IMG/VR virus record: IMGVR_UViG_2695420403_000013
Location: 1 to 26,336 of that record
Origin: a virus
Taxonomy: Duplodnaviria > Heunggongvirae > Uroviricota > Caudoviricetes
Direction: 5' to 3' (one strand)
Length of the DNA stretch: 26,336 nucleotides
A program made the translations under genes and the position numbers. Below the pieces are notes generated by a model. It was not told where the DNA came from. It saw only the letters and a list, made by a program, of their open reading frames with translations, and searched no databases. How positions within the stretch are numbered: position 1 is the first letter of the stretch; each line of letters opens with the position of its first letter. This document shows positions 14,861 through 25,202 of this stretch, one piece after another.

Positions 14861-16543
14861 TTACAAATACCGTCTAACACGTATTTTATTAATCTTCGAC
14901 TCATTTCCAATTCTTATCAAAGCATTTCTCGCTTTTTCTCCGATGCGTTTCATTCTATCTGAACCATTGCTATACCCACCAAACTTAAGAGCAGTGGCTA
15001 TTATTGAATCACCACCTTCAAGAATGACTTTTTTAAATAAATCATAGTAGTCATCCTCTGAGGCAGCATCCAATATTTCCTCGTGCCTATCAGACCAACC
15101 ATTCTGACTTGATAATTTTATTAGAACATCCTTTATAGAACCATCCAGATTTAAAGTAATAGAATAATCTTGGATTTTTGACTTTAACTCAGCATCTTTT
15201 ATAGGATGAACATTCATGTAAATAGATTGGACATATTCCTTAAGAGCATCATTGCCGTAATTAATAAATTTACTTATTAATTCACTTGCTTTAATATTTT
15301 CATCTAAATCTCTATACAGTCCGACAACACTATCCAAGTCACTTGGAGTTACATACTCTATCCCACCAACCACCGCTTGATATAGATTATCAACGACCTG
15401 ATTTCGGTTATCTTCAAATGAATTATAGAAAAGCTTCCATGCTTCAAACAGTGAACCTCGCTTACTATCACGGATAAGTTCATCATTTCTTAGACTTACT
15501 TGCCTTTGAAAATTGTTCATATCAATATATCCATGCTTAACCATGTCTATAAGGACTTCATCAAGTTCGTTTGTTTTTTTATAACCATATATAAGCAAAG
15601 TATTAAGCCATTTTTTTCCTTTTCCATCCTCTTTTTCATCACGCACATAGATATTTCTCATATTTCTAATATACTCCAATGATGGTACATCTCCATCTGG
15701 AGTAAATGCGTAATGACTCCAACAATACAAAGTTAAGGAGCGTGCGACTTCATTTGCAATTTTATCAAAATTAATGTTAATAGCAGGTAACAAGGCTAGC
15801 AAAAACCGCTCTATTTTTTTCAGTATCCGAATATTTTTAATACCTAGAGAAATGGAGTATTTGCTTAATAATTTATGAACATCAGAATTATTTTTATATG
15901 CTATAGCTGCACATTCTTCTGGCGTAGGGTTATAGGTAATCTCTCTATCAATAACCTTTTCTTTATAAGTGGAGTAATCATCCATACCACTTGTCCCATT
16001 ATTAAGTAAAAGAACCACCTTACAATTTTTTTGTTCTTTCAATAAAGAAACCAACCCTAAGACATCTTTCACTTCTAAATTTTTACCACGTCTTTCTAAG
16101 TCATCTATGACTACAATAACATTAGTAATTGACATAAATGACATTGACTCAAGTGTCGTAGCGAAATTTTTCACAACAGGTGTTTCTTTTAACAAACGAG
16201 CGGTCTTTCTAGTGCAGGATTCAAGAAGTCCCTTTGTATTTTGGGTTGCTGTTTTTAAATTAGGTTTATTTCCAATAAAATCTTTTGTAATTGTATTTTC
16301 AAAGATGGAATATTTTAATGCGTCCAATGAATTAACACCAAAAAGAGAGACGTAACTATATCTATTAAATGCAATCTTATTCTTATTTTCCTTTAAGAAA
16401 GTATTCCAAGTATAGGTTTTCCCAATCCCCCATTCACCCTGAATAGCCATTACCTCAGGTTCTGCAGATGAAATAAAGTCTGACAACTGTTCTTTAATAT
16501 AGTCCAATGACATGCACATTCTCCGAGATAGATAGTCATCCAT
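14861..16543 (-). CDS. Cargo gene: KAP-family P-loop NTPase (PifA-like), candidate anti-phage/exclusion protein
   Basis: Walker A QGEWGIGKT (Trp-containing G-x-W-G-x-G-K-T typical of KAP NTPases) and Walker B VVIDDLERR. AT-rich. Probable true start is ATG 16511-16513 (GGAG ribosome-binding site), downstream of a TATAAT at 16544-16549. Confidence 0.6.
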   Translation of the reverse strand: MDDYLSRRMCMSLDYIKEQLSDFISSAEPEVMAIQGEWGIGKTYTWNTFLKENKNKIAFNRYSYVSLFGVNSLDALKYSIFENTITKDFIGNKPNLKTATQNTKGLLESCTRKTARLLKETPVVKNFATTLESMSFMSITNVIVVIDDLERRGKNLEVKDVLGLVSLLKEQKNCKVVLLLNNGTSGMDDYSTYKEKVIDREITYNPTPEECAAIAYKNNSDVHKLLSKYSISLGIKNIRILKKIERFLLALLPAININFDKIANEVARSLTLYCWSHYAFTPDGDVPSLEYIRNMRNIYVRDEKEDGKGKKWLNTLLIYGYKKTNELDEVLIDMVKHGYIDMNNFQRQVSLRNDELIRDSKRGSLFEAWKLFYNSFEDNRNQVVDNLYQAVVGGIEYVTPSDLDSVVGLYRDLDENIKASELISKFINYGNDALKEYVQSIYMNVHPIKDAELKSKIQDYSITLNLDGSIKDVLIKLSSQNGWSDRHEEILDAASEDDYYDLFKKVILEGGDSIIATALKFGGYSNGSDRMKRIGEKARNALIRIGNESKINKIRVRRYL

Positions 16544-17526: not shown

Positions 17527-17760
17527 TTAATGCAGCCAGCTGTCGTCTTCCCACACCTTCTGCATAATCTTCATCACTTGTTTTCTTTCTTCGTCCAGTT
17601 GCAGTCCGGTCAGTTCCACACCGTTAGAGCTACCTTTGCGGATGCGAATTACCGTTTTGGGATACAGGGGGCGCAGATTGCGGTAAAGCTCGGATTCAAG
17701 GGCGTCCAGGGTAGACTGGCTAATCTTCTGCTCTTTATCGATCATTATTTCAATGCGCAT
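17527..17760 (-). CDS. DinI-like protein (second gene of the Tum-like operon)
   Basis: Start at ATG 17758-17760 after GGTGA. MRIEIMIDKEQKIS...LDALESELYRNL...KIMQKVWEDDSWLH resembles DinI (MRIEV...). Confidence 0.65.
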   Translation of the reverse strand: MRIEIMIDKEQKISQSTLDALESELYRNLRPLYPKTVIRIRKGSSNGVELTGLQLDEERKQVMKIMQKVWEDDSWLH

Positions 17761-17770
17761 AAAGGTCACC

Positions 17771-17959
17771 TCAGCTGATGACATCCATTGAGCGGTTGTA
17801 TTCGTGGGTTCTGATTTTTGCCATGAGTTCATCTGTCAGTTCAGAAACCCACTGCAAAGCCAGCCCCTTCTCTTCATCACTACACTCACTAGCCGCTACA
17901 AGCTTAAGAAAAAAATCAATGCGCTGGAGCTTCAAAGACTCCAAAAAATAGTCCTGCAT
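17771..17959 (-). CDS. Small protein (62 aa), first gene of the LexA-controlled operon; possible antirepressor (Tum N-terminal-like)
   Basis: ATG 17957-17959 preceded by AGGAGG. The longer listed ORF (start 18061) would run through the LexA box and is rejected. Confidence 0.4.
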   Translation of the reverse strand: MQDYFLESLKLQRIDFFLKLVAASECSDEEKGLALQWVSELTDELMAKIRTHEYNRSMDVIS

Positions 17960-18002
17960 CTTTCCTCCTATGACACCACAAGCAATACTGTATACATAAC
18001 CA

Positions 18003-18018
18003 CTGTTTATATTTACAG
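18003..18018 (-). promoter_or_regulatory. LexA operator (SOS box)
   Basis: CTGTttatatttACAG, a perfect CTGT-N8-ACAG with AT-rich spacer, about 40 bp upstream of the 17959 start. A half-site CTGT sits at 17988-17991. Confidence 0.6.
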
Positions 18019-22247: not shown

Positions 22248-22441
22248 TTGTTCCCCCGTTTTTTCGTTGATAGTTCTGCCAGCAATTCATCTTGTGAACG
22301 GCACGGATGCCAGCGTTTACCATCCTTACCCATTATCCAGCCGTGACCGTAGTGCATTGCCGGACTTTGTTTTACCAGCAGCGATGCAAATGATGGTTCT
22401 TTCGTAAGCATAAGCACCTCATAGCAAACCGAATGAAGCAC
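22211..22441 (-). CDS. Hypothetical early protein
   Basis: 76-aa ORF, overlapping its neighbours at both ends. Confidence 0.35.
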   Translation of the reverse strand: MLHSVCYEVLMLTKEPSFASLLVKQSPAMHYGHGWIMGKDGKRWHPCRSQDELLAELSTKKRGNKWLLKALRRLFH

Positions 22442-22937
22442 CGAGGCCAGTCACGGTATCAACTGCACTCGCCATCGCAGGATTAGCCTGTAAACGGGCC
22501 TGCAATGAAACAGCAGCCAACGCCATCAGTCGTGTTACAGAGTTAATGCTGCTGATCGCATCACGACGACCTGCACTGGTTTTTACATCGCCTGAAACCG
22601 CACCTGCAGCTACACGCCCGATCTCTGCTGTTGCACTCATGATGTAATGCGGCAGTTTCTCTTTTGCCACCTCATTAATCGGTACACATGGCAGACAATT
22701 AATCTGAGCCAAAAAGCCATCTACCAGCGTTGAATCTTCAGTCAGATCGGTAAGTAGCCAGATATCTGGTGCGGTTAATAAATGAGGTTGAGCTGGGTTC
22801 AGCTTGTTCCGCAGAATCTGCACATTCATGCCTGCACGTTCTGCCAGTTGCACCAGGTTGTGGCGCAGTGCGAAAGCACGACAGGCTTCATCAAAATGTG
22901 GATGTTTGGAAACTTGGTAATCAAACATAGTCGACAC
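22419..22937 (-). CDS. cII: CII-like transcriptional activator (186 CII-like)
   Basis: 172 aa. N-terminus [20 protein letters not shown]...[12 protein letters not shown] resembles 186 CII as I recall it. Position follows the apl-like gene. Confidence 0.55.
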
Positions 22938-22960: not shown

Positions 22961-23182
22961 CTAATTGAATGCAATATTGAAATCAGTAAGTGCATCAACG
23001 GTAAGAGCAGCAAGGTTGATCATTACCTTTTCTCTTTTTTTGTCTTTACGAAGACGATGCCGAGGGATGCGACCATCAGCCAGCATATCGTTGATTGTGT
23101 CGATTGAAAGGCCAGTAAGTTCGCTATAACGCTCGATTGTGACGTGTGGCGTATTCAGAGTTATTGAAATGTTAGGGGTCAT
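22961..23182 (-). CDS. apl: Apl/Cox-family excisionase/repressor (small HTH)
   Basis: 73 aa, first gene of the lytic operon, divergent from the repressor, GGAG ribosome-binding site. Confidence 0.6.
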
Positions 23183-23270
23183 GATGCAACATCTCCTTTT
23201 AGCTTGTGGTGAGCTGGTTTTAATCGTGATAAAGACATCACAAAACGGAGAATAGGTTCACATAAAGAAC
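23183..23270. promoter_or_regulatory. Lysis-lysogeny switch region (divergent lytic/lysogenic promoters and operators)
   Basis: 88-bp intergenic region between the apl-like and cI-like genes. Contains the palindrome GTGAT-aaagac-ATCAC at 23226-23241. Confidence 0.5.
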
Positions 23271-24215
23271 ATGTCAACTCAAAAATTCACATTTCGCCAT
23301 ATGAATGACGATATGAAAGCCGTTGTCATACAGAATCGCGGTGGTCAGAAAGTAATTGAGCGGATACTCATGGCTTATGGCTTCAAGTCACGCCAGGCAT
23401 TCTGTAACCATCTAGGTATTTCCCAAAGCACGATGGCTAACAGATATGCCCGCGATACATTTCCTGCAGATTGGGTAGTTATCTGCTCAATGGAAACAGG
23501 AGCATCAATTAAATGGCTAGCATTTGGTTCAGATGATGACGAGCAAATGCCATCCCCTTCACCAGAACAACATGTTGAAACACACTCCGAAGATGGTTCT
23601 TATCATGATGTTCACTATAAACAACAAAAGTTCGACAATGAAAACTCCGTTGATTTTTCTCGAGGTGGCAAGGAAGCAATAGAACGAATTGTTAAGGCTT
23701 ACGGTTATAAGACGCGCCAAGCCTTAGCTGATCACTTAGGTATTTCAAAAAGCACATTAGCCACAAGATATATGCGTGATGTCTTTCCTTCAGACTGGAT
23801 AATTAAGTGCGCTCTAGAAACGGGTACTTCACTAACGTGGCTAACTACTGGTAAAGGCCCAAAGTTTGACGATGCAAGAAATGATGTAATTGCTATTACA
23901 CGCAAAAAAATCACTGATGGGAATCTATTTGAGTCAGATTTCTATATGCTTGATAAAGCATTAATACCAGACTCAATCCAATTACCACTGATTGTCAGTA
24001 CCCCAAAAAAAACATACCTATGTGATCAGTCATTTGATGAAATTACAGATGGTAAATGGATTGTTGAAATAGAAGGAAAAGTGAGCATTCGAACCCTAAC
24101 TAGGATACCTGTAGGAAGATTAAAAATCTCAGACAATTATTTATCGTTTGAATGTAATATTTCAGACATTGATGTTATTGCTAAATGCAAATTTTTGCTT
24201 ATAGAAGAATTATAA
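23271..24215 (+). CDS. cI: CI-type immunity repressor with a tandemly duplicated N-terminal HTH domain
   Basis: 314 aa. Two ~70-aa repeats (IERILMAYGFKSRQAFCNHLGISQSTMANRY...METGASIKWL and IERIVKAYGYKTRQALADHLGISKSTLATRY...LETGTSLTWL), each resembling the 186 CI N-domain, plus a CI-like C-terminal domain. Confidence 0.7.
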   Translation: MSTQKFTFRHMNDDMKAVVIQNRGGQKVIERILMAYGFKSRQAFCNHLGISQSTMANRYARDTFPADWVVICSMETGASIKWLAFGSDDDEQMPSPSPEQHVETHSEDGSYHDVHYKQQKFDNENSVDFSRGGKEAIERIVKAYGYKTRQALADHLGISKSTLATRYMRDVFPSDWIIKCALETGTSLTWLTTGKGPKFDDARNDVIAITRKKITDGNLFESDFYMLDKALIPDSIQLPLIVSTPKKTYLCDQSFDEITDGKWIVEIEGKVSIRTLTRIPVGRLKISDNYLSFECNISDIDVIAKCKFLLIEEL

Positions 24216-24227
24216 GAGGATATTGGA

Positions 24228-25202
24228 ATGGCCGGTTCCAATTGGAAAGATAATAGTGAAGAATATATCTCTAGAATCATTAAACTAGAGGAATTAAAAT
24301 CATATTTATCCGATAGTGTCTATAATGATTTGAAAAAACTATTGAATTCTTTAAAGTTTAATGAATTCGATGTGCTTTTTGATGTTTACAGTAAATATTT
24401 TTCTAAAAAATATAATTGTGAGCACATTAACCCCGAACGCACATCCTTAAAAAATAGTGAGATAGATGATTACATTTCAAAAATCACTAAATTAGAGCAT
24501 AAAGTGCGTGAATTGCAAAAAATCCATAACTCTCATTCAGAGCAAATGGAAAAGTTGAATGAAAAATTATTAAATGAAATGGAAAGTAAAAAAAAACTAG
24601 CATCACAGCTAGATTTCCAACACGCCAAAAACAATGAGCTAAAGCTTCAAAACCAAGAACTTTCAAGCAAAATCCAACAAAATAAAATTGACGAAAAAGT
24701 TCCTAAATATGTGCAGGGCGTCAAAGAAAAACTACAGCAGGATGATAAAGATTTCACTGCAATGTCTTACAATTGGGCGATAGCCGGAATACTATTTTCA
24801 TTATTATCTATAAGTGCCGCCTTTTTAACATTTTTTTATAAAATAGATATAAAAGATACTACCCCCATTGAACTTTTTTATTATTTCACTAGGGGCTTGC
24901 TTGGGGTTGCATTACTTTCTTGGCTTTCTTATTTTTGTTTAAACAATTCAAAAAAATACACACATGAAGCAATCATAAGAAAAGACAGACAACATGCTCT
25001 AATGTTTGGTGAAGTCTTCTTACAAATTTATGGTTCAACTGCGACAAAACAAGATGCTATTGATGTGTTTAAAGATTGGAACATGTCTGCTAATTCTGCA
25101 TTCGCAGATAAAATGCAGCCACCTCCAAATTTATTTAACATTCTAGGTACACTTGTAGATAAAAAATCAGCAGCAAATGATGACAGCATTACCAAAAAGT
25201 GA
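24228..25202 (+). CDS. Cargo gene in the lysogenic operon: coiled-coil plus two-TM membrane protein, unknown function
   Basis: 324 aa, AT-rich. Starts 13 nt after the cI stop with an AGAGGA ribosome-binding site. N-terminal ~170 aa heptad-rich and charged; helices WAIAGILFSLLSISAAFLTFFY and LLGVALLSWLSYFCL. Confidence 0.6.
   Translation: MAGSNWKDNSEEYISRIIKLEELKSYLSDSVYNDLKKLLNSLKFNEFDVLFDVYSKYFSKKYNCEHINPERTSLKNSEIDDYISKITKLEHKVRELQKIHNSHSEQMEKLNEKLLNEMESKKKLASQLDFQHAKNNELKLQNQELSSKIQQNKIDEKVPKYVQGVKEKLQQDDKDFTAMSYNWAIAGILFSLLSISAAFLTFFYKIDIKDTTPIELFYYFTRGLLGVALLSWLSYFCLNNSKKYTHEAIIRKDRQHALMFGEVFLQIYGSTATKQDAIDVFKDWNMSANSAFADKMQPPPNLFNILGTLVDKKSAANDDSITKK

Follow-up and report, generated by a model that had tools for sequence, protein, structure and literature searches.

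The CI repressor of phage 186 is among the best-studied alternatives to the lambda switch: its dimers and 14-mer wheel wrap and loop DNA, with inverted-repeat operators at pR and further distal sites, FL and FR. To our knowledge, all models of this wheel assume a single helix-turn-helix (HTH) domain per subunit. Here we describe a repressor of this family with two unlike HTH domains, encoded by a long cI gene (23271..24215, + strand; ATG start, 314 aa plus stop) in a 26,336-nucleotide stretch of viral DNA (Caudoviricetes; IMG/VR record IMGVR_UViG_2695420403_000013), referred to below as the window. The window comprises the right-hand two-thirds of a 186/P2-like prophage, running from tail-fibre, head and terminase genes through a replication gene to the early operon and int. 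We establish the domain architecture of the long CI, its mosaic origin, its chimeric control region, the selection acting on both of its heads and its wide distribution. On balance we think it probable that this protein is a working CI-type immunity repressor of the prophage, of the 186 type, in which two heterologous heads both read DNA.

The long CI resembles 186 CI (2FJR, 2FKD) in its Pfam domains, the fold of its C-terminal domain (CTD), the position of its gene and the face-to-face arrangement of pR and pL with the same pL geometry. As 186 has its SOS antirepressor Tum, so the prophage carries a probable SOS-controlled tum-like module, recognized from sequence. The 186 protein has one HTH domain in 192 aa (canonical size ~190-210 aa), whereas the long CI has two different HTH domains joined by a 41-aa tether in 314 aa, a difference of 122 aa where ~120 aa had been estimated in the initial annotation of this DNA. 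By its domains, its CTD fold and the position of its gene the long CI belongs to the 186 CI family, from which it departs in the number of its heads.

Two HTH domains ahead of one 186-type C-terminal domain

Phage_CI_repr (PF07022) matches the long CI in two stretches (E 3.1e-58), which we call D1 and D2 (the best match is the D2 stretch, residues 135-198), and Phage_CI_C (PF16452) matches once, at residues 209-307 (E 2.7e-31). When the first 118 residues were compared by BLASTP with the remainder of the protein, 38 of 65 residues were identical in an ungapped alignment (58%; E 2e-31), a similarity well beyond chance. These results bear out the initial description, in which two copies of the HTH domain stand ahead of one C-terminal oligomerization domain, here of the 186 type. 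Aligned in register, D1 (residues 22-88; 23334..23534, + strand; recognition helix SQSTMANRYARD) and D2 (residues 130-196; 23658..23858, + strand; recognition helix SKSTLATRYMRD) are identical at 38 of 67 positions (57%), in good agreement with the ~60% first reported, and their offset is 108 aa (324 nt) in place of the proposed ~112 aa. D1 is preceded by a 21-residue leader (MSTQKFTFRH...; residues 1-21; 23271..23333, + strand) that travels with it. The linker between the heads (residues 89-129; 23535..23657, + strand) is acidic in composition, with 11 D/E versus 2 K/R, and is predicted to be disordered. D2 sits in the canonical position beside the 186-type C-terminal, or oligomerization, domain (residues 209-314; 23895..24212, + strand), as judged from Pfam and from the alignment to 186 CI. 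An AlphaFold2 (AF2) monomer model of the long CI, built on 44 long homologues, renders D1 and D2 as five-helix domains (pLDDT ~80) and the CTD as a confident beta-rich fold, with residues 89-126 disordered (pLDDT < 50).

Alignment to 186 CI, a check suggested with the initial annotation, pairs residues 9-180 of that protein with residues 135-305 of the long CI (E 2.6e-26; 34% identical over D2 and the CTD) and leaves D1 as the additional N-terminal domain. The 186 N-terminal domain itself is 39% identical to D1 and 42% identical to D2. In Foldseek the CTD superposes on the 186 CTD (2FKD) with a TM score of 0.91 and an rmsd of 1.5 Å over 110 columns. The LexA chains among the fold neighbours are all distant (E 1e-5 or weaker, 7-11% identity), and Pfam gives no match to Peptidase_S24 (PF00717) on the long CI at E <= 0.01. 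The lack of an S24 peptidase match speaks against a self-cleaving repressor of the LexA or lambda CI type; the source label 'HTH and peptidase S24 domain' attached to one homologue is not borne out by Pfam. A P2 C-type repressor (~100 aa, binding direct repeats) is rejected, as no such family occurs among the Pfam and PHROG matches and the long CI is three times longer and of the 186 type.

The identification as a CI-like immunity repressor is upheld by the 186-type domains and by the gene's position, divergent from apl-cII and upstream of int (from the map of open reading frames (ORFs) and family hits). Proteins 94-100% identical to the long CI are named 'phage repressor protein CI' in E. coli. 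This plain name and the frequent choice of an internal Met start by annotation pipelines hide the two-headed architecture. Several long cI genes in RefSeq (L085, L087 and L091, the last from CFT073) begin at an internal Met 57 nt downstream, which conceals the conserved leader, and the CFT073 long CI is annotated as 289 aa through such an internal start.

Mosaic origin, selection and distribution

The initial annotation regarded the HTH domain as tandemly duplicated. D1 and D2 belong instead to two different N-terminal-domain lineages, each of which also serves as the sole DNA-binding domain of short CIs. Across 46 long proteins, mean identity is 73% among D1 domains and 77% among D2 domains but 59% between D1 and D2, and within one protein the two are always 45-67% identical. 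Short CIs of 207-209 aa, such as P0087 from Salmonella diarizonae, have a single N-terminal domain to which D1 and its leader are 85-88% identical; P0087 has the same leader (MST..TFRH) and an identical D1 recognition helix. D2, hinge and CTD together are 81% identical to the 199-aa short CI P0027 over its full length, and D2 alone is 79-81% identical to the N-terminal domains of the short CIs P0027, P0031 and P0090. The last ~12 residues of the linker (KFDNENSVDF) resemble the N-terminal leader of P0027 (KYPNEISLNF; N-terminus MSTSKYPNEISLNF), and the linker DNA has no significant similarity to any short-CI locus or to the other long cI genes compared.

A recent tandem duplication in place is ruled out by the closer relationship of D1 and D2 to short CIs than to each other. 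The two copies are only 65% identical in DNA and 48% identical at third codon positions, which also argues against a recent or artefactual duplication. An assembly duplication, which the initial annotation had named as a possible refutation, is rejected because of this divergence and because the locus recurs in independent genomes: four independent complete E. coli chromosomes carry the 2.9-kb cII-int stretch at 99.8% identity, and three others carry it at >92%. These sequence comparisons identify the long CI as a foreign N-terminal domain fused onto a complete short CI. In such a fusion, D1 and its leader, with a Q-type recognition helix, would have been joined via a ~40-residue disordered acidic tether to a D2-type short CI with its K-type helix, hinge and CTD intact. 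Other long CIs combine D2 with other classes of D1 (MDLRRGGK..., MNFKNGGQ..., MDLTKGGRG...), and two unlike heads are, on the sequences compared, a recurring theme across long CIs.

Tandem cI genes are found at two related loci, L080 (881-2424) and L086 (E. coli E2348/69, NC_011601, 855128-856671), in which a 189-aa short cI beside apl is followed after 50 bp by a 307-aa two-headed cI and then by a KAP NTPase gene. The pairing of a short and a long cI at these loci plausibly reflects a stacking of repressors that precedes fusion. A likely route to the long form would be two tandem cI genes followed by deletion of the first CTD, which would join an N-terminal domain to a whole CI.

The two heads are the most conserved parts of the protein. 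Pairwise comparison of 33 class-A long CIs gives mean identities of 0.81 (D1), 0.77 (D2), 0.34 (CTD) and 0.19 (linker, 35-46 aa long). There is next to no variation in the recognition helices of the 33 clusters (Q-S-T-M-A-N-R-Y-A-R-D in D1, K-S-T-L-A-N/T-R-Y-M/L-R-D in D2), and the two heads have fixed differences from each other at Q52/K160, M55/L163 and A60/M168. Nei-Gojobori estimates over nine loci, which are rough values with dS near saturation, give dN/dS of ~0.04 for D1 (the lowest in the protein), ~0.10 for D2, ~0.6 for the linker and ~0.4 for the CTD. By these estimates both heads are under strong purifying selection and are being maintained. Both should bind DNA, because each is of a type that forms the sole DNA-binding domain of a working short repressor.

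The long form is common. Two N-terminal domains in a protein of 290-330 aa were found in 45 of the 120 best clusters at 90% identity, and these two-domain clusters are spread over Escherichia, Salmonella, Klebsiella, Enterobacter, Citrobacter, Kosakonia and Edwardsiella. D1, linker and D2 are matched contiguously in ~215 of 5426 complete E. coli genomes, carriers including CFT073 and E2348/69. The architecture also occurs in sequenced Klebsiella phages, among them 4LV2017, whose CI aligns with 99% of the long CI at 57% identity. The family has only 323 members in a library of 1.84 billion representative proteins; of the 150 best matches, 120 carry the domain, 17 of them in two copies, and all ten of the distant two-copy proteins checked consist of two PF07022 domains and a PF16452 domain. 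Salmonella phage PsP3 CI (NP_958086, 286 aa) has two Phage_CI_repr domains and a Phage_CI_C domain and represents a separate deep lineage, ~40% identical to the long CI and with different helices. In all, three deep long-CI lineages can be distinguished, within which the D1-D2 identity of a single protein ranges from 29% to 70%. The long CIs of 4LV2017, CFT073, E2348/69 and PsP3 share the architecture and the locus. In a comparative study the extra length of PsP3 CI was put down to its C-terminal domain being longer (PMC3448106), and our full-text literature searches found no description of a two-HTH CI of the 186 type. The architecture is widespread and present in long-known phages and, as far as we could find, has gone unstudied. 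The suggestion of a new immunity type, in the sense of something unseen, is therefore not sustained, as the architecture is ordinary in databases (E. coli genomes, Klebsiella phages, PsP3); as the full-length match to 4LV2017 CI illustrates, repressors in which it is standard already exist at the database level.

A chimeric control region and its candidate operators

The long cI is separated by 88 bp from apl, an apl/cox-like excisionase-repressor gene of 73 codons that opens the lytic operon (22961..23182, - strand; phrog_575 'Cox-like excisionase and repressor', E 3e-29) and is followed by cII, a lysogeny-establishment activator of the 186 CP76 type (22419..22937, - strand; PF06892, E 3e-41). 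Both cII and apl have 95% DNA identity to D2-type short-CI loci such as L067 and L014 (apl 95% versus L067), and the left 50 bp of the gap is 86-88% identical to these same loci, which have the same Apl; in D1-type short-CI loci apl is of another kind. The D1-type loci L078 and L049 match the gap over its right 38 bp (89% identity) and cI at its 5' end (76%). Beyond this, D2 (82%) and the CTD (86%) match the DNA of the P0027-type locus L076, coverage of the CTD by other long cI genes is only 34-39%, and a homologue of the cargo gene that follows the long cI lies downstream of P0027 in L077. Judged by these identities, the pR/pL region is chimeric as CI is, with a D1-type pR half and a D2-type pL/apl half. 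We favour co-inheritance of D1 with the pR half of the switch and of D2 with the repressor body and the pL/apl side, as these matches suggest. The single-HTH relatives differ in this respect: the P0087-type short CI (L078; 85% identical to D1 and leader, sharing the pR side) has its own non-chimeric control region, and so do the P0027-type short CIs (L076/L077; 81% identical to D2 and CTD, with the same cargo gene family downstream).

The candidate pR, directed toward apl (23249..23277, - strand), has a -35 hexamer TTGACA (23277..23272) that overlaps the cI ATG, a 17-nt spacer and a -10 hexamer TATTCT (23254..23249). It matches the consensus at 10 of 12 positions, and both hexamers are kept in all long loci and in D1-type short loci. 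The candidate pL, facing pR (23164..23192, + strand), was read by eye as TTGAAA (-35, 23164-23169, in the first apl codons) and CAACAT (-10, 23187-23192), at positions relative to the apl start codon that mirror those of the annotated pL of phage 186. The sequence ATTGAAAT at this site is conserved in essentially all 77 related loci. From their placement and conservation, we infer that these hexamers constitute pR and pL. In the first 21 codons of the long cI, dS is 0.5 versus 1.3 in D1, which points to cis-acting DNA, namely pR elements, inside the 5' end of the gene; the leader would thus be encoded by DNA that also forms part of the switch.

TCACA/TGTGA occurs four times in 23130-23300 versus 0.23 times expected, a 17-fold enrichment. 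Sequence inspection places three TCACA elements on the pR side as candidate CI sites (23238..23300, + strand). Site d (23238-23242) lies in the pR +1 region and is followed by GAGAAT over the -10 hexamer, site e (23258-23262) lies in the promoter spacer, and site f (23287-23291), with the invariant CACATTTCGCCAT at 23288-23300, lies inside cI codons 6-10. The spacing of d-e (20 bp) and e-f (29 bp) recalls the 21 and 32 bp between 186 operators (PMC3675496), and site d with GAGAAT resembles the second pB site of 186, ATTCAC-N5-GAGAAT. All three positions recur in L078 and L049, short-CI phages of the D1 type. Across 16 long loci there is no variation in the D1 helix or in sites d and f, and the local DNA shows no changes that follow the variants of the D2 helix. 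Site e exists in several forms (TCACA, TCGCA, TCTCA). In L080 the long cI stands away from pR, and site f has been lost there. The invariance of d, f and the D1 helix, the sharing of the sites with D1-type phages and the loss of f away from pR lead us to assign D1 to pR, where it probably reads the TCACA sites d, e and f.

On the pL side there are three GTGA-type elements, also from sequence inspection (23137..23229, + strand): a (TGTGA, 23137-23141) within apl, b (TGTGGTGA, 23205-23212) and c (CGTGA, 23225-23229). Element b lies inside a GGCTTGTGGTGAGCC-like palindrome (23202-23216) just downstream of the putative pL start, which is kept in all loci with a 73-aa Apl, whatever the CI type. From this distribution, the palindrome is not a CI-type-specific operator and may be an Apl site or an RNA element. 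The GTGA elements could serve D2, Apl or neither, because the left half of the gap is so similar to that of D2-type short-CI phages sharing Apl. In those phages pR is flanked by CCCA-N2-TGGG palindromes, which resemble CTCAATTGGGAG of 186, or by TTCAC-N5-GTGAC where the D2 helix is the T variant, as it is here. The CCCAATTGGG-type palindromes found at pR in P0027-type phages are missing from this locus, and the 186 operators ATTCAC-N5-GTGAAT and CTCAATTGGGAG and the FL/FR flanking sites have no clear counterpart in the window. No TCAC-N5-GTGA, the core of the 186 A-type site (ATTCAC-N5-GTGAAT-like), occurs anywhere in the window, no CYCA-N1-3-TGRG (186 B-type) occurs near the switch, and GTGA-N8-TCAC occurs once in the entire window, at pR.

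Several further candidates were discarded. A CCCAAATGAG relic in the linker-coding DNA of some other long loci is decayed here and is probably just coding sequence. As possible distal FL/FR-like sites, the 11-mer AAAGACATCAC (23231) with an inverted copy at 23776 is within chance expectation for a 2-kb region, and homologous P0027-type loci do not preserve the 12-bp palindrome TTCCAATTGGAA at 24236. Covariation of the D2 helix variant (T165/N165) with bases of sites c and d was perfect in nine loci and failed on direct reading with seven more loci. The ogr/B promoter, taken from a matching E. coli genome, has a single GTGAAT half-site beside its -10 and is uninformative. A comparison with the att region, meant to tell Apl sites from CI sites, turned up AACTTATTGT repeats in the DNA after int, where GTGA repeats are absent.

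Proposed mechanism, neighbouring genes and implications

If both heads of the long CI are functional, as we favour, the CTD would dimerize and probably build higher oligomers as in 186 CI, so that two different heads per subunit would give four per dimer. The HTH domains would bind the face-to-face pR/pL region and shut off lytic apl-cII transcription. D1, having arrived with the pR half, would most likely read sites d, e and f. D2 would keep the specificity of a second immunity group, recognizing weaker GTGA sites on the pL side that aid DNA wrapping, conferring immunity to D2-group phages, or both. We propose only tentatively that the long CI is naturally bispecific, with D1 running its own pR switch and D2 retaining the operator specificity of the other group. 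A mycobacteriophage repressor in which one chain contacts an asymmetric site with two domains is alike in principle only (PMC9283540): it acts as a monomer and belongs to an unrelated family, with two domains of different kinds and without a 186-type oligomerization domain.

Several observations weigh against two functional heads of different specificity. The operators typical of D2-type phages, CCCA-N2-TGGG and TTCAC-N5-GTGAC, are absent from pR and from the rest of the window, which leaves D2 without a target found in its own genome, and the left elements b and c may be Apl sites or part of pL, judging from the loci that share them. The TCACA sites all point the same way, an unusual arrangement for a dimer with two-fold symmetry, and operators in the window are not rigorously definable by computation. 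In the AF2 model (pTM 0.38) the relative placement of domains is not predicted and there is no confident D1-D2 packing. Cross-immunity to D2-group phages is something that we purely infer.

The initial annotation supposed that doubled DNA-binding domains might be matched by half-sites of doubled spacing, and a more general form of this idea, which we consider doubtful, is that D1 and D2 read the same TCAC-type half-site, so that a four-headed dimer clamps a doubled, two-fold symmetric operator. The outcome would be tighter or differently spaced repression and not a second specificity. A four-element array does exist at 23205-23262: TGTGG (23205), CGTGA (23225), TCACA (23238) and TCACA (23258) are placed at -26.5, -6.5, +6.5 and +26.5 around 23233.5, and the element positions relative to the cI ATG are identical in seven of nine long loci, with a 1-bp shift in the other two. 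Short CIs with the D2 helix variant KSTLATRY use TTCAC-N5-GTGAC, so both heads may recognize a TCAC core, and the inner and outer sites lie 20 bp apart, a distance that the flexible tether of 41 residues could bridge. However, single-headed short-CI phages also have the left pair b and c in this position, and the pair tracks the Apl type and not the CI type; this half of the array is thus not specific to the long form. In addition, site e is variable, the c-d spacer is 7-9 bp long, the recombination joint falls within the array, and the fixed differences between the two recognition helices do not suggest a shared half-site. We regard this mechanism as possible but not the best supported.

It is unlikely, in our estimation, that D1 is a regulatory appendage and that D2 alone contacts operators. 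D1 might then be a docking site or decoy for Tum-type antirepressors, a partner of the repressors of co-resident prophages or an intramolecular mask of D2. Such contacts are possible in principle, as the N-terminal domains in the crystal of the 186 CI dimer pack in a way unfit for DNA binding (PMC3675496); a Tum-like antirepressor module is present in the window, and in the AF2 model a long flexible tether separates D1 from the CTD. Nevertheless, D1 is closely similar to the sole DNA-binding domain of short CIs (85-88% identity, with an identical recognition helix), the pR control half was co-inherited with it, its dN/dS is the lowest in the protein and there is no D2-type operator at pR. Finally, an assembly duplication, or an accidental read-through fusion of adjacent genes on its way to becoming a pseudogene, has a negligible probability, for although tandem cI genes occur in related prophages and fusion by deletion would be mechanistically easy, the two copies are too different in DNA, the locus is nearly identical in independent complete genomes, the architecture is kept across genera and in the viable phages PsP3 and 4LV2017, and both domains are under strong purifying selection.

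Induction of the prophage would proceed via a LexA-controlled Tum-like antirepressor and not by self-cleavage of CI. The window holds a split tum-like SOS module (17527..18018, - strand) in which a LexA box (CTGTTTATATTTACAG, 18003-18018), a perfect CTGT-N8-ACAG, precedes a small antirepressor-like ORF of ~63 aa (~17962..17771, - strand; phrog_698) and a DinI-like ORF (17832..17527, - strand; phrog_189). The arrangement matches that of PsP3 and Fels-2, which carry a split tum of which the upstream half is the antirepressor (PMC3121763). Induction by antirepressor is likely here because the LexA box and the split tum-like pair are present and CI is without an S24 peptidase domain, and by analogy the module is probably the SOS-controlled inducer that inactivates the long CI.

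Between the long cI and int (from 25284, from family hits) lies a cargo ORF (24228-25202, + strand; GC 31%) encoding a 324-aa coiled-coil protein of phrog_2628, for which PADLOC gave no match. Its translation, read by eye, includes a hydrophobic stretch that looks like a membrane segment. The cI-int gap is a variable cargo hotspot (compare L071-L074 and L080-L082), and in related long-cI loci the same slot holds a KAP NTPase, an OLD-like ATPase-TOPRIM protein, GmrSD_N with HEPN, or DUF4747. GC content is 43% in D2 and 31% over the CTD and cargo gene (23859-25202), versus 49% for the window. This shared drop, and the CTD being the most divergent part of the protein, suggest that CTD and cargo gene move as one recombining module. 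Elsewhere in the window, an ORF of 560 aa (14861-16543, - strand), situated between the portal gene and the replication/tum region, matches PDC-S49, a candidate defence family (E 8e-25), and phrog_4740, and is probably a second cargo or defence gene.

The existence of a two-headed form raises the questions of how repressors of the 186 type encode the choice of operators, the wrapping of DNA and the specificity of immunity, and whether new immunity types arise by fusion of modules rather than by point mutation. On a wheel of the 186 type there would be 28 DNA-reading heads of two kinds per particle, if the two-headed reading is true. One practical consequence concerns predictions of immunity group for P2/186-like prophages of E. 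coli, Klebsiella and Salmonella, which are misled by the hypervariable CTD when made from whole-protein identity. The two-headed form also raises the question of whether prophages stack repressor specificities as a defence. If the long CI is bispecific, its lysogen would be immune to two groups of phages whereas the phage itself would evade the short D2-group repressor, a one-way 'stacked' immunity that would have arisen from the fusion of repressor modules in a recombination hotspot.

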